Source: an uncultured Chloroflexia bacterium (lineage in GTDB: Bacteria > Chloroflexota > Anaerolineae > Anaerolineales > Villigracilaceae). Taken from it: a stretch of DNA of 40,000 nucleotides. Within the stretch, counting starts at the first letter, position 1, and each line of letters begins with the position of its first letter. Positions 3,405-24,388 of the stretch are shown here, one piece after another. The DNA lies in the NCBI GenBank assembly GCA_963823985.1, contig CAWGNR010000006.1, forward strand, positions 88,618-128,617, written 5' to 3'. A program made the translations under genes and the position numbers. The notes beneath the pieces were generated by a model. It had not been told where the DNA came from. It was given only the letters and a program-made list of their open reading frames with translations, and made no database searches.

Positions 3405-4652
3405 ATGAAAAAAGGACAAGATACAAGAGGCTACGAAAGGTACATGGCACTGGATATCCACCGGGAATACATCCTGGTGGGAGGGTGGAATGAGGAGAAG
3501 GAGTGGGTTCTCACGCCACGACGAGTAAGCATCGAGAAGTTTGGCGAGTGGGCGAAGAAGAATATTCGTCCGGGGGATATAGTGGTGCTGGAAACGACCA
3601 CGAATGTATGGGCGATCTACGACATTGTGGCGCCGTTGGCGAGCCGGGTCTTGGTGGCGAATGCTGCTGAAGTCTGGGAACTCGCAGGCGCGAGGGTCAA
3701 GACGGACAAGGAAGATATCAAGCGGTTGTTGAAGCTGCTCGTGGGAGGCATCGTGCCCGAAGTGTGGGTGCCGCCGATGGAGGTGAGGGAACTGCGCGCC
3801 TTCATTTCATATCGGAGCCGGTTGGTAAGCACGGCCACAATGATCCGCAATCGCCTGCAGAGCTTGCTGCACAAACACAACTTGCTGCTGCCAGAAGAAG
3901 GCATTCTGGACCAGGGCTGGTGGAATGTGCAATCTTCGATCAGTGGGTTGGAGAAGATGCAGATCCGTCAGGAACTGGCTCTGTTGCAGGAAGTCGAGAA
4001 ACTGAAGATAGCAGTCGATGAAGAGTTGGAGCGCCAAAGCACAGGTCCAATCTGGGGCAAACAAGCCTTGCAGATCATGCAGCTGCCAGGCATAGGGTTC
4101 GTTGTGGCAATGACAGTGCTTTCTGCCATTGGAGACATCTCGCGCTTTGAAAATGCAAAGCAGTTGGTAGGCTATGCAGGCATCGGTGCAGGCGTGCACG
4201 ACAGTGGCAAAACTCACAAGGAAAAGAAGATCACCAAGAAGGGACGCCGGGAATTACGCTGGGCAATGGTAGAAGCAGCTTGGCGGGCAGTGCGGAGTTC
4301 GCCCTTTTGGAAGGCAGAATACGAGAGACACCTGCAGCGCATGCGCAAACCGAACCAGGCGATTGTGGTGGTTGCCCGGAAGTTACTAATCGCCATCTGG
4401 CATGTCCTGAGTAAGGAAGAGACCGATATCCATGCAACTGAGGAAGACCTGGCGTACAAAATGCTATTGCTCTCTTGGAGCTTGAGCGAGGACGTTCGCC
4501 AGGGTTTGACCTACAAACAGTTCGCCAAATACGCGCTGATGAAATTGGGTGTCGAGACGGACATTACGCGCTTTGTACGCAAGAATGTTCCAAGACGATT
4601 GGCGCCGAGAGATGAAGTGTTGGCGCGCATCAAGGAGCTGGGCCTAGCCTGA
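3405..4652 (+). CDS. IS110-family transposase (DEDD RuvC-like N-domain plus C-terminal Ser domain)
   Basis: 415-aa ORF with MALDIH, LETTTNVW, GARVKTDKEDI, VPEVWVPP, LPGIGFVVAMTVLSAIGDISRF, HDSGKTHKEKKITKKGRRELRWAMVEAAW and NQAIVVVARKLL. A GAGGAG RBS-like sequence lies upstream. Confidence 0.9.
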   Translation: MKKGQDTRGYERYMALDIHREYILVGGWNEEKEWVLTPRRVSIEKFGEWAKKNIRPGDIVVLETTTNVWAIYDIVAPLASRVLVANAAEVWELAGARVKTDKEDIKRLLKLLVGGIVPEVWVPPMEVRELRAFISYRSRLVSTATMIRNRLQSLLHKHNLLLPEEGILDQGWWNVQSSISGLEKMQIRQELALLQEVEKLKIAVDEELERQSTGPIWGKQALQIMQLPGIGFVVAMTVLSAIGDISRFENAKQLVGYAGIGAGVHDSGKTHKEKKITKKGRRELRWAMVEAAWRAVRSSPFWKAEYERHLQRMRKPNQAIVVVARKLLIAIWHVLSKEETDIHATEEDLAYKMLLLSWSLSEDVRQGLTYKQFAKYALMKLGVETDITRFVRKNVPRRLAPRDEVLARIKELGLA

Positions 4653-5747: not shown

Positions 5748-7505
5748 TTAGAATGTCCTTGTTTGGGACGTGGACTCCGCGTATCCTTAAGGGTGATTGA
5801 TCGCCGGGAACGCGGAAGGGACGAGAGCGTTTGGGTTGTCCGCCCGCCGGTATGGGAAGGATCTCATTGAGAGTGAGATCCAAGCCCGCTGCGTTAATTG
5901 GACACCCGGCGGAGACTAATCTGGGACCGGCAAAGTGAAGCCGAGAGCCCGCATCGGTACCTGCAGCTCAAAACCCGAAACCCACGTCCCAAACATAAGA
6001 GGAGTTTAGCATGAAAAAAGGACAAGATACAAGAGGCTACGAAAGGTACATGGCCTTGATACCCACCGGGAATACATCCTGGTGGGAGGGTGGAATGAGG
6101 AGAAGGAGTGGGTTCTCACGCCACGACGAGTAAGCATCGAGAAGTTTGGCGAGTGGGCGAAGAAGAATATTCGTCCGGGGGATATAGTGGTGCTGGAAAC
6201 GACCACGAATGTATGGGCGATCTACGACATTGTGGCGCCGTTGGCGAGCCGGGTCTTGGTGGCGAATGCTGCTGAAGTCTGGGAACTCGCAGGCGCGAGG
6301 GTCAAGACGGACAAGGAAGATATCAAGCGGTTGTTGAAGCTGCTCGTGGGAGGCATCGTGCCCGAAGTGTGGGTGCCGCCGATGGAGGTGAGGGAACTGC
6401 GCGCCTTCATTTCATATCGGAGCCGGTTGGTAAGCACGGCCACAATGATCCGCAATCGCCTGCAGAGCTTGCTGCACAAACACAACTTGCTGCTGCCAGA
6501 AGAAGGCATTCTGGACCAGGGCTGGTGGAATGTGCAATCTTCGATCAGTGGGTTGGAGAAGATGCAGATCCGTCAGGAACTGGCTCTGTTGCAGGAAGTC
6601 GAGAAACTGAAGATAGCAGTCGATGAAGAGTTGGAGCGCCAAAGCACAGGTCCAATCTGGGGCAAACAAGCCTTGCAGATCATGCAGCTGCCAGGCATAG
6701 GGTTCGTTGTGGCAATGACAGTGCTTTCTGCCATTGGAGACATCTCGCGCTTTGAAAATGCAAAGCAGTTGGTAGGCTATGCAGGCATCGGTGCAGGCGT
6801 GCACGACAGTGGCAAAACTCACAAGGAAAAGAAGATCACCAAGAAGGGACGCCGGGAATTACGCTGGGCAATGGTAGAAGCAGCTTGGCGGGCAGTGCGG
6901 AGTTCGCCCTTTTGGAAGGCAGAATACGAGAGACACCTGCAGCGCATGCGCAAACCGAACCAGGCGATTGTGGTGGTTGCCCGGAAGTTACTAATCGCCA
7001 TCTGGCATGTCCTGAGTAAGGAAGAGACCGATATCCATGCAACTGAGGAAGACCTGGCGTACAAAATGCTATTGCTCTCTTGGAGCTTGAGCGAGGATGT
7101 TCGCCAGGGTTTGACCTACAAACAGTTCGCCAAATATGCGCTGATGAAGTTGGGTGTCGAGAAAGACATCACGCGCTTTGTGCGTAAGAATGTACCAAGG
7201 CGATTAGCGCCGAGAGATGAAGTGCTGGCGCGCATGAAGGAGCTCGGCTTAGCCTGAGAAGTAAGCCCGAAGAACAACTGAATAAAGAATGAACAACCCC
7301 GGCATGAAAACCTTGGATTGAGTTTATCGAAAACAAAGGGCTGACGGGGGTGGCGAAGCCTTCCCTATAAATGAAAAATACTGTCCCAAAAAACAAGAAG
7401 CTGCCGTGAGAGAAGGATCTCGATCGGCAGATTTTGATTTGGATGTCTTGTGAAACTGGATCAGAAAGATTTTATCTCAGCACTTGACAACTGCAGTAAT
7501 CGGTA
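5748..7505 (+). mobile_element. IS110-family insertion sequence, copy 2 (transposase start damaged)
   Basis: The left end 5748-6010 is identical by eye to 3142-3404. The coding region is near-identical. The 3' non-coding region 7258-7505 is clearly more diverged than the rest. Confidence 0.85.
6011..7257 (+). pseudogene. IS110-family transposase, N-terminal frameshift removing the first catalytic Asp motif
   Basis: Copy 1 has ATGGCACTGGATATCCACCGG (MALDIHR). Copy 2 has ATGGCCTTGATACCCACCGG at 6051-6070, which is 1 nt shorter and carries substitutions. The frame from ATG 6011 stops at about 6130. The remaining 391-aa ORF (6082-7257) lacks LDIH. Confidence 0.7.
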
Positions 7506-11736: not shown

Positions 11737-11885
11737 GGAATAATAAACCTAACACCATGACTGGACAAGAAGCCTAACGGTTTGCGTTAGTGGTTGGCGG
11801 GCGGGCTTGGATAATGCCTAAGAGCAGGGAAAACCCAAAGCCAGAAAAATGCTTGTAAATCGCGCAGAATCCGGCCAATCCACTG

Positions 11886-13819
11886 GTAGGGTCAGGGAAT
11901 GGCGCCTGGGCATAAGCCTGGTTTCCATTCCCTGCCACCTCGAACCGGACGTGAGGTTTTCCCTCACGCGAAGCGGAGCTCTCCGACAACCTTCTTCCTG
12001 CGGCTTTCAAGGTTAGACTGCACATATTCCGGGTAGGTAGAAGAATTCTAAACCCTGTTGACGTAGTAAGGCTCTAAAGGTAAGTTCATCCCAGTGTCCA
12101 CGCGATCCCAGTTTTGAGCGCAGCCATTGTTCCAGACGATAGCGGACATAGCGGTCAAGTTGCTGGAATTTCAGGGTACTGTTCCCAAGCCGGAAGTAAT
12201 TCCGCCAACCGCGAATGATCCGATTGAGAAACTTTATTACTTCAGATAAGGGATTACTCAACCGCATTCTTTCAGTGATAAGGTGGATTTTACTGCGAAT
12301 GGCTTTCATGGCTTTAGGAGCGGGCCAAATGTAGGGCAGGAGCTTACCACTCTTTCTTGCTTTCTTCTTGTGGAAGTGAAAGCCGAGAAAATCGAAACCA
12401 TCTCGACCCATGTCCACAATTCGGGTTTTCGTGGGATGAAGTGTGAGTTTCAAAATATACATGATTTGCTTGACCTTTTGCAGGGCAGTTTCAGCCTCCC
12501 GTTTTGACCGACAGATGATGACGAAATCATCCGCATATCGAAACAGTTTGCCGAGAGAAGAATATCGTTCTGCCCAATACATATCCAGTACATGCAGGTA
12601 AATGTTAGCTAACAGGGGGCTGATAACACCGCCTTGAGGAGAACCTATTTGGGTAACGTTCTGTACACCATCTTCCATGACACCCGCTTTCAGCCATAGA
12701 CAAATGAGTTTCAGTACTCGCCGGTCACTAATCCGCCTCTTGAGCAGAGACAGGAGCATTGAATGGTCTATTGTGTCGAAGTAACTCTGTATATCGGCAT
12801 CAACCACCCACCAGCCAGCGATGAGAGACTTTTTCACTTCGGATACGGCCTGTTGTGCGCTCCGTTTGGGACGGAACCCATAGGAATTTTCTCGGAAGTT
12901 GGCTTCAAAGATCGGTTCGATCACAAGCTTACATGCCTGTTGCACCACGCGGTCACAAACCGCGGGAATTCCCAGCGGCCTTTGTTTGCCATCAGGCTTC
13001 GGGATGAAGACCCGTAACACTGGCTTCGGGCGATATGTACCTGCTTTCAGGTCTTGCGCAATCAGATAAAGAAACTGTTCTACTCCCTCCCGTTCCACAT
13101 CTTCGATGGAGACACCATCTACTCCGGCGCTGCCACCGTTCCTGCGGACTTCTTCCCAAGCCTGGCTCAGAATGTCAGGCCGGAATATGCGGTCATAGAG
13201 TGCATGGAACCGACGGTTCCTGTTCCTCTTGGCCGTCAGGTATAGTTTGCGCTGGAGTTCTCGTGATTTGTCTTGTGGTGGAATTGGCCTTGCGGCATGC
13301 ACCGTCACTTACTTCCTCGCTGAACCTGGTTGAAGTAGAGACCCTTTCCTCCTGACGAGTTCTGTTGTCTCGTCAATCAACGGTACTATGGTCTCCTCCG
13401 ACTTCTCATCTGGCTAAAATCTTAGGATTTCACCTTGCGGCTTATACCTGCGGTTACACTGTTTCTGTATCAGCGACCAGATGAGACCTCTCCTGTTCCA
13501 TCGCCTGCTTTCACAACATCCCATACTCCCTACACCGGAGAGTTCTTGACGGCTGCTTTTCAGGGTCTTCGCCGCTTCTGTTGCCTTCGCCATGCGTGAC
13601 AGGCTCGGCTCTCTCTTGCTCCCCTTGCGGGGCTAACATGTCGGTGCTGCAAGTTTCACTTTATGTTACGGACTGCTGTTTTGCTTCCCTTTCTCAAGGA
13701 GTTACAACGCTTCGGCACATCCGGTCACCCCGATGCACCGGTTGCCTGCTACCTGACGGCCTGACCCTTATCAGGACTGGACTTTCACCAGCTAGCAGAC
13801 GATGACTTTCAGGACACAC
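11886..13819 (-). mobile_element. group II intron (ORF-containing, no endonuclease domain evident)
   Basis: On the minus strand the 5' end reads GTGTGTCCTGAAAGTC. A domain V-like hairpin CGCGTGAGGGAAAACCTCACGTCCG is followed by a domain VI-like hairpin ending ...CCCTAC. The RT/maturase ORF lies inside. Ends are +/- a few nt. Confidence 0.75.
12013..13308 (-). CDS. group II intron reverse transcriptase/maturase
   Basis: 431-aa ORF with NGGSAGVDGVSIEDV, RPLGIP, SYGFRP, QGGVISPLLANIYL and FRYADDFVIICRS (YADD), plus a C-terminal maturase-like region. No HNH tail is evident. Confidence 0.9.
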   Translation of the reverse strand: MTVHAARPIPPQDKSRELQRKLYLTAKRNRNRRFHALYDRIFRPDILSQAWEEVRRNGGSAGVDGVSIEDVEREGVEQFLYLIAQDLKAGTYRPKPVLRVFIPKPDGKQRPLGIPAVCDRVVQQACKLVIEPIFEANFRENSYGFRPKRSAQQAVSEVKKSLIAGWWVVDADIQSYFDTIDHSMLLSLLKRRISDRRVLKLICLWLKAGVMEDGVQNVTQIGSPQGGVISPLLANIYLHVLDMYWAERYSSLGKLFRYADDFVIICRSKREAETALQKVKQIMYILKLTLHPTKTRIVDMGRDGFDFLGFHFHKKKARKSGKLLPYIWPAPKAMKAIRSKIHLITERMRLSNPLSEVIKFLNRIIRGWRNYFRLGNSTLKFQQLDRYVRYRLEQWLRSKLGSRGHWDELTFRALLRQQGLEFFYLPGICAV

Positions 13820-14425
13820 CACGCTTTGTTCGGCGGCTCTTATTACTGAAAGATTACATTGATAATGCAACCATCAAAAAAGCCAGACGTGCGAACGCAT
13901 TGGCAAGCACATGCAAACTGATACTTAAGCGAATGTCGCGCTTCCACATAACGATATAGCCCAACGCAGTTCCCAATAAAAACACGGTGAGAAAACCAAA
14001 TAGTTGCCAACTATGATAAAGTCCAAAAAATAAGCCACCAACAAGCGGAGTCCAAGCCCCATAGCGTGAAATACGAGGTAGAAGGTAGCCCCTAAAATAT
14101 AATTCTTCAATCCAAGGTAGAACGATTCCCGTTACGACAAGTTGAAATGCGAAGGTAATAACCAAGATATTCTTTGTATAGGCAAGATATTGAGATTGTT
14201 CTTCAAGAAACATCCATTTGGGCAATCCAGAAAAAAGTCGTTCTGTCAAAAAGGCATTGATAGGAGTTATTAGTGTTATTAGCAAGAAAACGATAATAAA
14301 TGCGCCGATAAAAACGAGAGCAAACACGCTCCAAGGCACTTTCTCTCGATAAAGTACAATGCCATTCAGGCTCAATCGCCCATTCAATTTTTTGCCTTCA
14401 TAAAACATAATTCCCAATAAAACTG

Positions 14426-15952
14426 TCTTGGTCAGTATCATTTTGCACATTAACAACATAGTTACATGAGCCAGATTTGCTTGGCGAATTCGTTAGGGGA
14501 CAAGCCTGGAATAGCCAGGCCTTGGTGTGGGCGGTTGTTATACTCTGGCTGGAATTGAAGCAACCAGAGTTGCAAAGCCTTTACGTCATTCCAGGATTTG
14601 TTGCGCAACCAATCTTTGAGCGTGAGCACAAAGCGCTCGGCAATCCCATTACTTTGTGGGCGATGGCGATAGATCGGGACGTGAACGAAATCGGTTTCCA
14701 ACGCCAGATCGGCTAAGGCTTTGGAGCGGAAATGGGTTCCCTGGTCACTGATGAGGAACGCCAATTCTTTTGGTAGGACTGCGCATAAAGCCATCGCCAC
14801 CTCATCGCTGGTGACTTTTGAACCGGTACGGAAGATGGGCAGTCCCAAGCACTGTCGCGTACAGTTGTCTGTGATCACCAGGATGGCAATCCAGGAACGA
14901 GATGGAGAGATGACCGTCCGAGGAACCAGTCTGGATTTCTCGATTGGCTTGATGCCAGGCTTGGTTTTCCAGCTGGCGCTGCTGGAGGGTGGCTTGACGC
15001 GTTTGGCGAACGGTTTTCCAAGCCTGGCGGGCCAACTGATATGTCGCTCGCCGCTCTTTGCGTTCTGCACGGGTCATGGCTTGATAAGCCTGACGCGTGT
15101 GACGCCAGGCGGTTCTTCGCAGCTTTCCAAGAGATATCTTCCTGTTTGCGTTGTTCTCGGACATGATAACGCTCGGTTCGTTCTTCCCATTCTTTGCGCC
15201 AACGGGTCGCTTCCTGGGATACCGGAATGCGTTCAGACTTGCGCCGAACCAGGCGGTCTCGTGTGGCCTGTGCATATTGGTGCATCGCTTCGGCATAATC
15301 CAGATCTGCTTCAGCGAATACTTGACCCGGCCAATGCGCCTCTTCGCCAGGAGGGTGAGAACGTTCGACGATCAGGTGTCCGGAAGAACCACTGACAGCA
15401 GGAAGCTTTTCTTGCGCCATATGTTCCTCTGGAACAAAGCACAGATCAATATTGACTGCTTGACCCGACTGTTCGGCCGTTCGCACTATCACTTCACGGT
15501 TTCTTTTTTCCTCACACCGCGTTCCGGCCACAGTTCTGCATCACGCAGAATGCGTTTCACCGTGTTGGGGCTGAGCAAGGGCACCCAGTTGTTGGCTTTC
15601 GCTATCTCCTGGGCAATGCGTGCTTTACCCCAGTCAGGATGCTCTCGCCGCATATCCGTCACCCGTTGCGCAATCTCTGCACTTTTGTAGTTCAGTTTAT
15701 GCGCAACCCGGCTGGCAAATTCTTCCAATCCGGCATACCCGTACTCATCAAAGCGTGGTTTCCAGTAGTAGAACGTTCTTCGGCTTAAGCGAGCTTTCTG
15801 GCAAGCCTGAGTAATGCTGCCGGTTGCTTCCCACGTTTCAAATAACAGCTTCCGCTGCTGAGACGTGGAAAAACCATAATATGTCCGTTTTGGGCTCATG
15901 TCACTATGTTACCCGATTATCGGGCTTGTGTAAGATGCTCTTGACTAAAACA
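14426..15952 (-). mobile_element. rve-superfamily (IS481-like / possibly IS1202-group) insertion sequence with 17-bp target duplication
   Basis: Flanked by a perfect direct repeat AATTCCCAATAAAACTG (14409-14425 and 15953-15969). It has imperfect terminal inverted repeats, with inner blocks AACATAGTTACATGAGC at 14453-14469 and GCTCATGTCACTATGTT at 15895-15911. Transposase pieces lie inside. Confidence 0.7.
14462..15899 (-). pseudogene. DDE (rve) transposase split over three or more frames
   Basis: ORF 15489-15899 is an IS481-like HTH N-terminus (ARLSRRTFYYWKPRFDEYGYAGL, HPDWGKARIAQEI). The 14875-15531 frame carries AVNIDLCFVP. ORF 14462-15070 carries VITDNCTRQ...SDQGTHF...PQSNGIAERF. The frames overlap, so at least two frameshifts are present. 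Confidence 0.65.
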
Positions 15953-16210
15953 AATTCCCAATAAAACTGGTAAGTCTATGAAAAGAATTGCCAGAAGAAA
16001 TGCAAACAACGGCGGATAACCAACTGAGTTGAGTATTGACTTTAGCGCAATAAATGCTACCGTTGCGAGTGCGCCAGGCATTATGTGTAGAAGAAATGAT
16101 TGTAAGAGCGTGTGCTGAGATGCCGTAGAGGAACTTTCGTATTTATTCATTAACAATTCCCTTCAGCCTAACCGAGTTGTTCTTGATTTTACCTTGTTGT
16201 GCCGAGTGCC

Positions 16211-16339
16211 GCCGAACGGCCCGCGTTACCGGCGGCTGGAGGGACGAGACTCGCCCACGAAACGGACAAAATCCAAAGCTACGAAAAAGCCTGATTTGAC
16301 GGTGAGAATCCAGCCGTCCGCGTGCACGCCGTGTTAGGC
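16211..16339 (-). repeat. attC-like site, subfamily A (A7), intact
   Basis: GCCGAACGGCCCGCGTTACCGGCGGCTGG...CCAGCCGTCCGCGTGCACGCCGTGTTAGGC. Confidence 0.8.
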
Positions 16340-16901: not shown

Positions 16902-16996
16902 TGTCTCTTAACTTTTTGGTTGACGTACAAATCTTGCCTTTCGATAGATTTCGCTAACAGAGGGTAAGGGAGAGGGGCGACCTCTCCCTCCCCGTT

Positions 16997-18968
16997 GTCG
17001 CAATGGGGTTGATTCCCCATATTATACCGGCGTGCGGCTTTCCCGCGCCGGGCGACCCCCGCTGCCTTGCCCTGAATGAGGGAACACGACCTTACTCTAA
17101 GTCAGTTGCCCATATAAAGACACCAAGCCCATGCGGGAAAGGTGTTTGATCAGCCAGCGCCGGTTGTCGCCGCGCGAGATACGTTTGAACTTCATAGAAC
17201 GCAGGCGAGCCCGGATCCAATTGTCGAGAAGCGTGAATTGATCTTTGACCGAGGCAAAATGTGTAGCAAAGTAACGGGCAAACCCAATGAGAACGCGGTT
17301 GAGCTTTTGAATAGCTTCCAGGCCGAAGTTATGGTGGCGAACGGTGAGGGAGCGCACCCGTTCCTTGAATTTCTCTATGGACTTTTGGCGGACAGAAACG
17401 CGACGGCGCGAGAGATGGAACCCCAGGAAGTCGAACCCTTCGACAAAGTTGGTGATCTTTGTTTTAGTGGGGGACAAGCTGAGGCCCAAGTCCTGCCGGA
17501 TGATATTGTCCACGAAAATCAGAGCTTGTTTGGCTTGGGCGTGGCTGCGGCACAAGACCACGAAATCGTCGGCGTAGCGCACGAAGCGGTAGCCAGCTTG
17601 TGTCAATCGTTGGTCGAGGACATCCAGGACGATGTTCGCCAGCAGGGGCGAAATCACACCGCCTTGGGGAGTGCCGGAAAGCGTAGGGAGGAAAGAACGA
17701 TCTTCCATTACGCCCGCCGAGAGAAACTCGCGGAGGATGCATAGGATATTACCGTCGGCAACCCGTTCAGCCACCTGGTTCAGGATAAGGATGTGGGGTA
17801 TATTATCGAAGAAGGCTTGGATGTCAGCATCCACGACCCATTTGTAACCAGCTCTATGGGCAGTAATAACAGCTTGAACTGCCTGATGAGCATTACGACC
17901 AGGGCGGAAACCAAACGAGCGCTCAGAGAAGTGTGGCTCGAAGATGGGTTCAAGGAGCGAACGCACAACTTCTTGAGCCACGCGGTCTCTGACAGTGGGG
18001 ATGCCCAACGGGCGTAGTTTGCCTTGCCCTTTGGGGATATAGGCACGGCGGAGGGGAGCGGCGTGGTAGGACCCCTTGTGTTTGAGGTCGAACATCAGGG
18101 CGGCAAGGTTGTCGTCCAGGTTGGCTTCAAACGAGCGGATGTCTACCTTGTCGACTCCGGCTGCTCCGCGATTGCGCTTAACGGCCTGGAAGGCACGGCG
18201 CATACGAGCCATGTTGATTTGTCCGGTCAGGGAATGGGATTTACGGCGTTGGTCGGGCAACAGACTCTCCTTGCAGAGAGGATGTGTTGTGAAGTAACAG
18301 AGGTTGAACCAGCGGGGCATTCTCACTTCGAGCGGCGTCTTTTCCGGTCAGCAGGATTACCCGCCTGCCCTGGCGGGCTAGGCCAGGGAAACAAGCCAGG
18401 CGGATGAGAAATGGCATCTCCATGCTGGGAAACATACCAGAACGAGAGAGTATCAGCCTTTTCTGGAAACTCCTGTTGCCTCACGGCAGACAGGTACAGC
18501 CCTTCGTTACTCTGAATGAGCAGTAACTACTATAGCTGTGCTGACTACCCCAAACTGACCGGCCAGCAGGAGTGACCGGACAGACCGCAGCATAGGGAGG
18601 TCACTTCGCACAGCTTACATCGTCCCGATGTCCTTCGGGATAGACCTCCGTTACCCAAGCCTCTGACTGACACTGTCCAGGGCAAGGGACTGCGTGGGTT
18701 CTCAGTTGGTTAGCACACTATCCTTTTATGACCGTGAAGACACCAAGCACGCTCCAGGTAGGACGACCCTAACTGCGTGTGGGAAGTCCTGGCAATTGTC
18801 GGTTACCAATGCTTCAGCCTTAGGCGCAGCCTGGCATACCTGGACCCGCCGAAACGGCCTGCCCTGAGCTTGTCGAAGGGTGCCTCCCCAGTCACCCTGT
18901 GGCTTGCCCACTTCGCGACTACTCCTTGCGGGGTAGCCCTGGGAACTATGTGGCCAGCAGTTCCGCAC
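16997..18968 (-). mobile_element. group II intron (second, different copy)
   Basis: On the minus strand the 5' end reads GTGCGGAACTGCTGGCC. A domain V-like hairpin CCGGCGCGGGAAAGCCGCACGCCGG has a 2-nt bulge. A domain VI-like hairpin ends ...TTGCGAC. The RT ORF lies inside. Ends are approximate. Confidence 0.7.
17097..18326 (-). CDS. group II intron reverse transcriptase/maturase
   Basis: 409-aa track ORF with NRGAAGVDKVDI, RPLGIP, SFGFRP, QGGVISPLLANIVL and VRYADDFVVLCRS. The true start is probably the internal MARMRRAF at 18212. Confidence 0.9.
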   Translation of the reverse strand: MRMPRWFNLCYFTTHPLCKESLLPDQRRKSHSLTGQINMARMRRAFQAVKRNRGAAGVDKVDIRSFEANLDDNLAALMFDLKHKGSYHAAPLRRAYIPKGQGKLRPLGIPTVRDRVAQEVVRSLLEPIFEPHFSERSFGFRPGRNAHQAVQAVITAHRAGYKWVVDADIQAFFDNIPHILILNQVAERVADGNILCILREFLSAGVMEDRSFLPTLSGTPQGGVISPLLANIVLDVLDQRLTQAGYRFVRYADDFVVLCRSHAQAKQALIFVDNIIRQDLGLSLSPTKTKITNFVEGFDFLGFHLSRRRVSVRQKSIEKFKERVRSLTVRHHNFGLEAIQKLNRVLIGFARYFATHFASVKDQFTLLDNWIRARLRSMKFKRISRGDNRRWLIKHLSRMGLVSLYGQLT

Positions 18969-19029
18969 CGCCGCAGAGCAGCACGGATCAGACTTTCACT
19001 GATTGGATAATGTACCGTTCAACTCACGC

Positions 19030-19151
19030 GCCTAACGGCCCGCATTACCGGCGGCGGTGAGAACCAAACGATTTATCGGAAAAGGTTCTCGCTCAGAATC
19101 AGCCATTTTAACGGAGCCAGTACCGCCGTCCGCGTGCATGCATTGTTAGCC
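19030..19151 (-). repeat. attC-like site, subfamily B (B4), intact
   Basis: GCCTAACGGCCCGCATTACCGGCGGCGGT...ACCGCCGTCCGCGTGCATGCATTGTTAGCC. Confidence 0.8.
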
Positions 19152-20487: not shown

Positions 20488-22187
20488 GAGACTGTCGAAA
20501 AAGTGTTTTTTCAAGAGCAAACCCCGGCCGGGCGATGACTGGAAGCGCAGTTTCCTGGCCGGAAGGCAAGGAGACTGGGGATTTGATCCCCCATGGGGCT
20601 AGTGGAGCGCCCCAAAAGAGTGGATTTTGCCGATATTATGTACTATAGCGAATAACCTCCATTGTACATCCACCTTAGATTTGGAACGTAGCGTGAATTG
20701 ATTCATGCGTTTTTGGACGCAGATATTGGCAAAGACCGGTTCAACGATCCCCAGTCGCCTGCCATAAATGCGCTTGCCCTCATCACTATCGATCTTGGCT
20801 TTCATCGCATCGATCAGGTTGGGGGATTGCCTCTCAACTTGAATGGAAAGATTGCGGCGTACAGTATTTGCCTTCTTCAAGCAACGTGCCCTCAAAGGAC
20901 AGGCAGCGCAATCTTCAGGGCGAGCATGGTAGAGATCATAGGTGCGATGGCGGTTGACCTGGTTGCGAGCATAGCAGGTCAATTCCTTCCCTTGCGGACA
21001 ACGATACGCCTGTTTGTCTGGATCGAACGAGAAGTCAGAAACAGTGAAGAGACTCGGCTTGGCGTCTGGACGCTGCCGGCCGTGGATGCCGTCCTTGAAA
21101 CGTTCTTGCTCGGCAAAGCGTGGATCGCGTGTGCGGTATTGGATGTCGGGGATGTAAGCATCGATCTTTTCATCTTTGCAGATCTTCAAGCTGTTGAGCG
21201 AGTGATAGTTGGGATCGGCGGTCAATTGCTTGCCTTGAAAATAGGTTTCATCTTTTCCGATGGCGACGGCGTTTTTTTTTGCGCTATCCAACATGGGCTT
21301 AAGATTTTCGTGATCCTGGCTGGCGAAGGCTTCCGCAGCGAGAATGACCTGATGCTTGGAATCGACCAGCGCCTGCGCGTTGTAGCCCTGGATGACCCCA
21401 TGAGAAGAAGGCATCTTCACCGATTCGTTGTCGATCACATTGCTTTGGATCTCCTTACCTTCGCTGCCGCGCTTCGGTTCCCGATCCTTTAGAAATTCAT
21501 TGAGCCGCTCGACCTGCCGCTGGAAGCGTTGTTCGCGCTTCTTTTGACGTTCGATTTCAACTTGAGGATGTTGATCTGCCTGGGCATGTTCTTCCATCAC
21601 GCGCTGGAGTTTTTCCTGCAGCTTATCACGCTTGTGTTTGAGTTCATCGAGCGTGCCGCTCCATTCTTTGGAGACATTGGCAGAGAGTTTGACGCCATCG
21701 AGAGAAAAGTGCGTGCCGCCCAGCAAATCCAATTCATCGCAGACCGTGAGAATATCGCTGAAGATGGAAGAGATCTCTTTTTGCATGGAAGACACAAAGG
21801 CGGCAATCGTGCTGTGATCAGGAGCATACCCATAAGAGAGCGCAATGAAGAGGATGTTTTCGTGGCAGGCGCGTTCGATCTGGCGGGAACTGATCATGCC
21901 TTTGGCGTAGGCTAGCAGGATGACCTTGAGCAGGATCTTGGGATGGATGGCGGTTGCGCCGGTCTCGTCGTTGTTGTAGCGCGCATCAAAGACCGACAGG
22001 TCGATATGTTTCTCCACCAATTGGCTGATGGTGTGCTCTAGCGTACCTGGGACAAGTTGGTCCTGCAGGGAAATCGGGAGCATGACCAATTGATCTTCAT
22101 TGCATGGTTTGAATTTTGCCATAGGTTCCTCTATCTCATAGAACCCCCTAGCTTTGCACTAGATTCTCCCACTTTTTCGACAGGCTC
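20488..22187 (-). mobile_element. IS1182-family insertion sequence
   Basis: 18-bp terminal inverted repeats GAGACTGTCGAAAAAGTG (20488-20505) and CACTTTTTCGACAGGCTC (22170-22187), 17/18 matching. It is flanked by AAC/AAC and contains a single 507-aa transposase ORF. Confidence 0.8.
20599..22122 (-). CDS. IS1182-family DDE transposase
   Basis: 507-aa ORF. The N-terminus MAKFKPCNEDQLVMLPISLQDQLVPGTLEH...HPKILLKVILLAYAKGMISSRQIERACHENILFIAL matches the family pattern as I recall it. Confidence 0.8.
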   Translation of the reverse strand: MAKFKPCNEDQLVMLPISLQDQLVPGTLEHTISQLVEKHIDLSVFDARYNNDETGATAIHPKILLKVILLAYAKGMISSRQIERACHENILFIALSYGYAPDHSTIAAFVSSMQKEISSIFSDILTVCDELDLLGGTHFSLDGVKLSANVSKEWSGTLDELKHKRDKLQEKLQRVMEEHAQADQHPQVEIERQKKREQRFQRQVERLNEFLKDREPKRGSEGKEIQSNVIDNESVKMPSSHGVIQGYNAQALVDSKHQVILAAEAFASQDHENLKPMLDSAKKNAVAIGKDETYFQGKQLTADPNYHSLNSLKICKDEKIDAYIPDIQYRTRDPRFAEQERFKDGIHGRQRPDAKPSLFTVSDFSFDPDKQAYRCPQGKELTCYARNQVNRHRTYDLYHARPEDCAACPLRARCLKKANTVRRNLSIQVERQSPNLIDAMKAKIDSDEGKRIYGRRLGIVEPVFANICVQKRMNQFTLRSKSKVDVQWRLFAIVHNIGKIHSFGALH

Positions 22188-23198: not shown

Positions 23199-24388
23199 CT
23201 AGCGACCAGACAGTTTTAGAAATAGGCACAAAGAGAGACGCGAATTGAAAAAGCGTTGACAAGACATCTCTCGGTAAAACGCAAACCGATCTGAAAGATA
23301 CTCAGATCGCGACGATCTTTACGGTCCACGAGATGACGCAAACCTTGATGGATAGTGCGACCGCCAGATGAAACCAGCCAGACGTACAGAAAGGCTACTG
23401 CCAGGGTCAATCTCGATAGCCGCAAAAAGCTGTGAAGCATGGAACACTCCAGATCAAAACCATGTTTTTTCATATCACCGAACATTTCTTCAATCCACAT
23501 CCGGCGTTTATAAAAGCGGAGAGCGGTTTGCAAATCAGGCAAATTGGTCGCCAGGCACCAGGGTTCTTTTTCACCAGATTTCCAATGCACCAGCAAGTTA
23601 GCCGGATAAATGTGTGTCTGTGACAATTCTCTTTTTCCAAGCCATACGCTCTGACCGGCTTTTTGGACGTAACTTCCAAAGGGCACCCACTGGTTTTCAG
23701 TCTGTGACCAGACCAACGTATCTGATTTTTGGCGTAAAACGTAGTACCAATGCCATTTGTCCAGTTGTTTTAGCACTTTGACAGCTCCAAATTCGGTATC
23801 ACCGACCAGAAAAACGGCGGCTCCACGCGGAATGAGCGTTTTTACATAAGCAAGTAACGCGATCTGTTTGCTGCCTGTGCTATGTCCGCGCACATACTTG
23901 ACCCAGGTCCAGGCGATCGGGATGGCACGTTTGCGATAGGCCAGGCTGACCATCAATAATTGATGACCAAAACCAATTTTGGTACCATCTACGATCAGAT
24001 GGATTTCTCCAAGGCTCGCCAGCTGTTCTGCAAGCCATTGAAGAGCGACCGGCTTATACCAGTCACGAACACGAATGGCTGGATTGTCGAGAAAACGCTC
24101 AAACCGTTTCACCGTACTTTGCAACTTTGCTTTCCCAGGTATTTTTCCAGCGATCCGGCTCAGGTAAACCGAACGGCTCTGGTAGATCCCGTACATGAGC
24201 AAAACAAAATTCCGGACTTGGGTAACTCTTTGCTCTGGACGCAATTCACGAATTCGCTGAATCCATGTATGATACAGTTGGTTGGTCGGCATGGTTTTCT
24301 CCTGGCAATCTGTTTTCTCGCAAAAACAACTTTACCCGGTTTTGCCTGCCGATCAACCTTTTCATTTGCTAAAGTGTCTGGTCGCTAG
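23199..24388 (-). mobile_element. IS4-family insertion sequence
   Basis: Terminal inverted repeats CTAGCGACCAGACAGTTTTAG (23199-) and CTAAAGTGTCTGGTCGCTAG (-24388). It contains a single transposase ORF. I see no clear target duplication. Confidence 0.8.
23216..24292 (-). CDS. IS4-family DDE transposase
   Basis: 358-aa ORF with LIVDGT, FLVGDTEFG and YKRRMWIEEMFGDMK (the Y-2-R-3-E-6-K signature). Confidence 0.85.
   Translation of the reverse strand: MPTNQLYHTWIQRIRELRPEQRVTQVRNFVLLMYGIYQSRSVYLSRIAGKIPGKAKLQSTVKRFERFLDNPAIRVRDWYKPVALQWLAEQLASLGEIHLIVDGTKIGFGHQLLMVSLAYRKRAIPIAWTWVKYVRGHSTGSKQIALLAYVKTLIPRGAAVFLVGDTEFGAVKVLKQLDKWHWYYVLRQKSDTLVWSQTENQWVPFGSYVQKAGQSVWLGKRELSQTHIYPANLLVHWKSGEKEPWCLATNLPDLQTALRFYKRRMWIEEMFGDMKKHGFDLECSMLHSFLRLSRLTLAVAFLYVWLVSSGGRTIHQGLRHLVDRKDRRDLSIFQIGLRFTERCLVNAFSIRVSLCAYF

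Follow-up and report, generated by a model that had tools for sequence, protein, structure and literature searches.

The 40,000-nt stretch analysed here (positions 88,618 to 128,617 of contig CAWGNR010000006.1, assembly GCA_963823985.1, from an uncultured Chloroflexia bacterium; hereafter the window) carries a group II intron that splits an attC site of an integron cassette array. We consider it probable, with good confidence, that this intron is a copy of an endonuclease-less, IIB-like lineage that homes into attC sites on the cassette-sense (top) strand, and that the copy in the window is most likely immobile. A broader proposition seems to us evenly poised between true and false: that an apparently undescribed, widespread, IIB-like lineage without endonuclease uses the R'' core of attC as intron-binding site 2 (IBS2) and retunes only its exon-binding site 1 (EBS1) to colonise attC families across phyla, on the strand opposite to that used by IIC-attC introns.

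The identity of the intron is unlikely to be a chance result, because its domain I matches an Rfam model at 87 bits (E 5e-18) and about 80 relatives occupy the same kind of site. These relatives align with it from intron position 1 through the same CCCTAC 3' end, and its termini (GTGTG...CTAC) agree with the GUGYG and AY ends of mobile group II introns. In the consensus fold of domain I, derived from the alignment of relatives, 52 of the 83 pairs show compensatory changes. As in other mobile group II introns, the open reading frame (ORF) in domain IV combines a reverse transcriptase (RT) with a maturase (X) domain (RVT_1, E 9e-38; GIIM, E 2e-15). This RT is 94% identical to that of its relative L004.

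Insertion into an attC site

Removal of positions 11886-13819 in silico joins GCCGAACAAAGCGTG to CAGTGGATTGG...GTTAGGC and restores a site of 129 nt, which shares 94-102 identities over 120-132 aligned positions (76-79%) with six other attC sites of the array. The restored site runs from GCCGAAC to GTTAGGC, in line with the RYYYAAC...GTTRRRY pattern at the ends of an attC, an imperfect inverted repeat located behind a cassette ORF. Its outer flank GTTCGGCGGC (13828-13837) matches, as a perfect reverse complement, the 5' boundary of the same cassette (16208-16217). Altogether, the window contains about 14 repeats with GCCTAAC...GTTAGGC ends, spanning 383 to 22312. The cassette ORFs lie on the minus strand, as does the intron, and their stop codons abut the R'' end of the repeats.

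The original prediction, made from the DNA letters, had placed a group II intron within an attC-like site, inside the arm and not at the core, co-oriented with the cassette ORFs and with an outer flank that pairs with the next cassette boundary. All of this holds true, as does its description of a 431-aa RT/maturase without an obvious endonuclease domain, in which we found RVT_1 and GIIM only. The ends that it gave for the intron are shared with the relatives, in which we could also locate EBS1 and candidates for EBS2 and EBS3.

The genome contains an integron integrase on another contig (C7:143176-144120; TIGR02249, 448 bits against a cut-off of 265). Beside it, attC sites of the same family lie on the plus strand (C7:147525, 152123 and 153239) and are directed away from the integrase. 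From this polarity it follows that the minus strand of the window is the attC top strand. Pairwise alignment of the two arms, which is not a structural model, reveals two extra bases, 6-7 nt apart, on the R''-side arm relative to the R'-side arm. They are present in the restored site of the window, in an intact attC of the array and in the restored sites of three relatives (L125, L100 and L130), which is the polarity expected of the extrahelical bases of attC. The intron junction GCGTG/C (the slash marks the insertion point) is located at the first unmatched base of the R''-side arm, 8 nt after R''.

Minimum free energy folds of whole attC sites were uninformative on either strand (z-scores of -0.5 to -1.5, with R boxes unpaired), and the inverted-repeat z-score of restored sites was weak for many true attC sites, including that of the window (z 1.8). 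Therefore, our assessment of attC sites is based on motif, position and arm alignments.

The integrase on C7 is the only integron integrase in the genome that exceeds the cut-off, and there is no intI inside the 40-kb window. Because of the latter, the array of the window is either a cluster of attC sites lacking integron-integrases (CALIN) or the distal part of a large array. Clusters of attC sites of the same family were observed on at least eight contigs of this genome, including C6, C7, C15, C20, C21 and C26.

Target sites of related introns

Scans of genome and metagenome contigs yielded 160 loci with RTs that are 42-94% identical to the RT of the window intron, and 80 non-redundant insertion sites were analysed, with hosts that are mostly Chloroflexota and metagenomes. 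At 54 of these 80 sites an AAC ends 8-9 nt before the junction, while YAAC was found at 61. The typical 5' exon of the relatives reads GCCTAAC-ANN-GCGTG, directly followed by the intron. Among the 55 sites with sufficient 3' flank, about 18 have a GTT at +106 to +109, and 11 match the strict L'-R' motif (AACGY...GTTRRRY). Complete attC sites are legible by eye at eight genome loci in addition to the window (L004, L008, L009, L010, L013, L014, L017 and L078). The longest upstream open frame was on the strand of the intron in 33 of 56 tallied cases and on the opposite strand in six; in four of the 56, where the intron is at the edge of the locus, the tallied stretch is meaningless, and two of these were scored as same-strand. 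Our results show that insertion into attC at a fixed position is a trait of this lineage.

Target recognition

EBS1 lies in a hairpin loop of domain I. Its pairing with the last five bases of the 5' exon is complete (5/5, G-U pairs included) at 70 of the 80 sites and across 21 different IBS1 words, with covariations such as GAGCC-GGCTC, CAGCG-CGCTG, GACTT-AAGTC and CATCC-GGATG. On the basis of this covariation, the EBS1 assignment is firmly supported.

The candidate EBS2, TGTTAG, is complementary to CTAACA, which comprises the R'' core plus one base. Introns with the EBS2 variants GTTGA or GTTGG are found at CCAAC exons in six of seven cases, compared to 15 of 49 introns with GTTAG (Fisher p 0.009, uncorrected for relatedness). 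Further covariation is seen in the combinations of AGGTTAG with CTAACCT and of CTTAG with TTAAG. Given these alignments, in which single mismatches are common, the EBS2 assignment is plausible. For EBS3, an initial ranking of positions was dominated by invariant T columns, and re-ranking gave intron position 290. In 65 of 71 relatives the base in this column pairs with the one that opens the 3' exon (T-A, C-G and A-T combinations among them), such that its assignment as EBS3 appears reasonably supported. All three elements are unpaired in the consensus fold of domain I.

We propose that EBS2 would pair with the R'' inverse core and the next base, EBS1 with GCGTG at the start of the L'' side, and G290 with the first base of the 3' exon. 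These three pairings would direct insertion to the position 8 nt after R'', at the first unmatched base of the arm. The intron would then reverse splice into single-stranded DNA and, like other introns without an endonuclease, rely on the replication fork for priming. Since endonuclease-less introns depend on replication forks (PMC4424553), attC sites may be attractive targets, being single-stranded, repeated and conserved. After insertion, R'' is separated by 1.9 kb from L'', L' and R' at the DNA level, which should block recombination there and keep the cassette that ends at 13834 from being excised at the split site. An active copy could be removed from array transcripts by splicing, given the sense orientation of the intron.

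Alternatively, the structure of the folded attC hairpin might be what the lineage recognises, much as stem-loops are recognised by class C introns, with base pairing limited to fine-tuning of the position. The distance to R'' indeed remains constant despite changes in EBS1 and IBS1 (IBS1 words GGCTC, CGCTG, GCGTT, GGATG and others), and the coincidence of the junction with the first unmatched base of the arm would also suit a structural cue. However, the fixed positions of EBS2 and EBS1 in the intron RNA explain a constant spacing equally well. Moreover, such a hairpin would need to span the insertion point, as the 5' exon alone provides only R'' plus 8 nt, and relatives with matching EBS1 (in L047 also EBS2) are inserted at non-attC targets, including domain I of class C introns. 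Hence, we consider recognition of the hairpin improbable compared to guidance by EBS-IBS pairing.

Class of the intron

The RT tree and the ribozyme family both place the intron, here termed IIB-like, outside class C. The tree is a quick one of 61 RTs; its branches are long and its labelled references few (class C, class D RmInt1, class B pXO1 and g1 Rh.js.I1). The RT of the window intron falls in a separate clade of 22 rows (support 99), nested within a larger clade of 46 rows (support 80), and its clade does not include any of the class C, class D (RmInt1) or class B (pXO1) references. The RT of Rh.js.I1 (g1) branches near this clade and outside it, with the deep nodes unresolved. Two IIC-attC reference loci from plasmids, L088 (K. 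pneumoniae pIMP-1495, after blaIMP-4) and L090 (class 1 integron, intI1-arr-2-intron-aac(6')-Ib), group with the E. rectale-type class C RT (support 99). The window RT is thus placed outside the class C RTs, including their attC-associated subset, and is 35% identical to the RT of L090. With respect to the ribozyme, all class C references match RF02001 (D1D4-3, 71-144 bits), whereas RF02003 is matched by the window intron, its relatives and the g1 reference Rh.js.I1; the Rfam family serves here as a proxy for class and does not replace a full structural comparison.

IIC-attC introns form a monophyletic subset of class C and insert into the bottom strand, opposite to cassette transcription (PMC3001079; PMC4424553). 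This orientation had been supposed, correctly, in the original prediction. In agreement with this, the introns of L088 and L090 are antisense and inserted at TTGT/T inside the R'' complement, after the whole hairpin. To our knowledge, IIC introns use a short IBS1 and an IBS3 and lack an EBS2. The window intron shares its strand with the cassette ORFs and the attC polarity.

It is very unlikely that the window intron represents the described IIC-attC lineage (S.ma.I2 type) in an unusual orientation, and we regard this explanation as largely refuted. The resemblance is that the window intron is endonuclease-less and resides in an attC near the R'' end. Its best matches among solved RTs are also class C RTs (GsI-IIC at 223 bits and E.r. 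at 220 bits vs LtrA at 181 and TeI4h at 174). Yet true class C RTs score 365-768 bits among themselves; the margin is small next to these within-class scores, and we rejected the best PDB matches as evidence of class. The tree separates the window RT from L088, L090 and the E.r.-like RT, and the ribozyme families differ. The references insert into the bottom strand at GT/T of the R'' complement after the hairpin (PMC3001079), whereas the window intron precedes the hairpin, in the top strand, and a candidate EBS2 is present. The suggestion in the original prediction that the intron belongs to the IIC-attC class is therefore not upheld, given an RT outside the class C clade, RF02003 instead of RF02001, the candidate EBS2 and targeting that is accounted for by EBS-IBS pairing instead of a hairpin ahead of the insertion point. 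The classification by RT phylogeny that it proposed thus points away from class C.

Copies in the genome and state of the window copy

The genome contains one full copy of the intron and two decayed 5' fragments of related introns, at C16:27650-27775 (L002) and C20:312656-312734 (L003), and all three follow YTAAC-N3-GCGTG. The fragments are directly preceded by GCCTAAC-AAT-GCGTG or AGCTAAC-ACA-GCGTG and end after about 100-150 nt; one of them is missing about 30 nt of its 5' end. The possibility raised in the original prediction of a one-off ectopic insertion, with the normal homing site elsewhere and the attC merely resembling it, might draw on the single full copy and the IBS2 mismatch, but it is the least likely of all and is refuted by the survey of relatives, in which dozens of independent insertions across genomes and metagenomes share this attC position and many are followed by a complete attC, and by the presence of the same motif ahead of both fragments.

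Domain V of the window copy is disrupted. The insertion TCCGCTT, together with two substitutions, breaks its lower helix; the canonical counterpart of the disrupted stretch is GAGCCGGA. This insertion occurs in none of the other copies with a readable domain V (30 by pattern match and about ten by eye), which carry the canonical GAGCCGGAUGAGG-GAAAA-CCUCAYGUCCGGUUC with compensatory variants. L004 and L013 have a regular 34-nt domain V, catalytic-triad helix included, and match RF00029 at 47 and 45 bits, respectively; the window copy lacks this structure and does not match the model. Despite its intact RT gene and domain I, the window copy has most likely lost both splicing and mobility through the 7-nt insertion. 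YAAC-N3-GCGTGC is matched by at least 30 attC sites of the genome that are empty, nine of them in the window array. This number of empty sites, combined with a single full copy, fits an immobile element.

Several points weigh against the interpretation of the intron as an immobile copy of an attC-homing, IIB-like lineage. Where both flanks are available, only about one site in three has a clear R' partner, and the remainder may be decayed attCs or other targets. A few relatives reside at non-attC sites (L037, L149, L154, L169, L026 and the Firmicutes twintrons), which implies that the lineage is guided by sequence and is not strictly bound to attC. The pairing of EBS2 with IBS2 is imperfect, as the 15 GTTAG introns at CCAAC exons have an A-C mismatch and CGAACA in the window has one mismatch as well, and the test of the EBS2 association takes no account of relatedness. 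The class assignment leans on the quick tree described above, whose few labelled references include none of class E or F. Finally, the insertion in domain V could be an assembly error in this metagenome-assembled genome.

Table 1. Coordinates of the split attC site, the intron and their parts in the window.
Feature	Position	Strand	Basis or remark
Group II intron, full-length	11886..13819	-	1,934 nt; 5' GTGTG (13819) ... CCCTAC 3' (11886); sequence, both ends shared by relatives
Domain I segment	13661..13794	-	Rfam RF02003 (group-II-D1D4-4), 87.4 bits, E 5e-18
EBS1 CACGC, hairpin loop of domain I, intron positions 222-226	13594..13598	-	Domain I alignment
EBS2 candidate TGTTAG, intron positions 182-187	13633..13638	-	Unpaired stretch 5' of small hairpin
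EBS3 candidate G290 (intron position 290)	13530	-	Pairs with first 3' exon base C at 11885
RT/maturase ORF inside intron	12013..13308	-	431 aa, intact, YADD present, no endonuclease domain
Domain V, damaged	11942..11981	-	Lower helix cannot form; no RF00029 match
7-nt insertion TCCGCTT in 5' strand of domain V	11971..11977	-	After GAGC
Domain VI	11886..11936	-	Bulged A at 11892, 7 nt from 3' end; sequence and fold
IBS1 GCGTG, last 5 nt of 5' exon	13820..13824	-	Complementary to EBS1 CACGC
IBS2 candidate CGAACA (CTAACA in most relatives)	13827..13832	-	Pairs with EBS2, one mismatch in window copy
R'' inverse core GCCGAAC of split attC	13828..13834	-	20 nt past stop codon of cassette ORF
3' part of split attC (L'' side, loop, L', R')	11772..11885	-	R' GTTAGGC at 11778-11772
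Cassette ORF just upstream of split attC	13854..14459	-	Rce1-like CAAX protease family, Pfam PF02517, E 1e-16

Comparison with other introns and implications

The window intron resembles the IIC-attC introns (S.ma.I2 type; L088 and L090) in several respects. These introns are endonuclease-less too, their natural targets are integron attC sites, and they invade the ORF-proximal (R'') end, which parts the cassette gene from most of its attC. In contrast, IIC-attC introns combine a class C RT with a class C ribozyme (RF02001), and they insert into the bottom strand at TTGT/T in the R'' complement after the stem-loop and lack EBS2. The window intron matches RF02003 and has the sense orientation; its insertion point is 8 nt past R'' and precedes the stem-loop, with guidance by EBS1 and the putative EBS2 and EBS3.

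Other introns that do not belong to the IIC-attC type have been described from cassette arrays in sense orientation. Sonbol and Siam (2021) reported the integron-associated group IIB introns UHB.I2 (CL1) and H.ha.F1/F2 (class E) in sense orientation near attC sites, and a top-strand IIC intron of Enterobacter cloacae is cited in the same paper (PMC7923331). Those introns lie just downstream of attC or by attC-like structures, and neither a conserved exon motif nor a lineage-wide pattern was reported for them. This differs from the lineage of the window intron, whose insertion point inside attC is fixed and whose EBS and IBS covary across about 80 sites.

We know of no reports of attC targeting by introns of class F or of the g1-g4 varieties. 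Like the window intron, they encode an RT/maturase without the DNA-binding/endonuclease (D/En) region (Toro and Martinez-Abarca, 2013, PMC3552965), and the g1 reference Rh.js.I1 (pRHL1, L093) has the same ribozyme type (RF02003, 102 bits). Full-text searches of one collection of papers returned none on the intron lineage of the window or on the R''-proximal position in attC.

Targeting of attC is usually taught as a trait of one class C sublineage that reads the bottom-strand hairpin. Our results suggest that ordinary EBS-IBS pairing, with the R'' core as a handle, brings introns of another class to this recombination site on the opposite strand, which would amount to convergent exploitation of integrons by retroelements. 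The target would be compact and predictable: IBS2, a 3-nt spacer, IBS1 and IBS3. A sense, spliceable insertion would freeze a cassette at the DNA level without silencing the array. If this is true, such introns lock cassettes in the DNA yet are invisible at the RNA level, and they are possibly a general, overlooked force that shapes sedentary integron arrays. For annotation, a note of caution follows: an intron in an attC is not an IIC-attC intron by default.

Variants among the relatives and other elements of the array

Four of the relatives, in genomes of Clostridia/Lachnospiraceae (L032, L034, L035 and L056; for instance L035:3417-7200), are 55-58% identical to the window RT and form the inner introns of twintrons. 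Each outer intron is of the E. rectale class C type, and the inner one, with a matched EBS1 (GACTTTC), is inserted at GGGTGAAAGTC/C, some 37 nt into domain I of the outer intron. The outer intron follows a terminator, and its own RT scores 768 bits to PDB 7UIM. These four loci are natural twintrons of two different classes. We considered the GC hairpin upstream of the inner introns as a signature of the class C habit of inserting after a stem-loop, and rejected it, as the hairpin belongs to domain I of the outer class C intron.

At one relative locus (L013:7166-7997), the intron family is also represented by a derivative of about 830 nt that lacks the ORF: domains I-III, V and VI are kept and the RT is deleted. 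It is located 1.7 kb downstream of a full copy, at a second attC-like site (GCCCAACACCGGCTC, directly followed by the intron), and its EBS1 is altered to GAGCC, which matches GGCTC. In many relatives (among L006-L017 and L104-L174), the loop of domain VI contains an extra structured insert of about 80 nt (...GAGGCACTCTCAGAAGAAATGGAGAGC...), which is absent from the window copy and from L004.

The array of the window also harbours further mobile elements, at 3405-4652, 6082-7257, 14462-15070, 20599-22122 and 23216-24292. They comprise two IS110-family transposase genes in 100%-identical repeats, one rve-type integrase ORF and two DDE transposases.

A further group II intron, distinct from the first, occupies 16968-19034 of the minus strand, sense to the cassettes, with an RT ORF at 17097-18326. 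Its RT of 409 aa is 42% identical to that of the first intron and groups with the class C references on a long branch. None of the Rfam D5/D6 or D1D4 models reached threshold for this second intron. Its start lies some 60 nt beyond the R' of an attC (GTTAGGC, 19040-19034), and the stretch between that attC and the GTGCG start of the intron reads GCGTGAG...CAGTGAAAGTCTGATCC, which resembles the 5' end of yet another intron.

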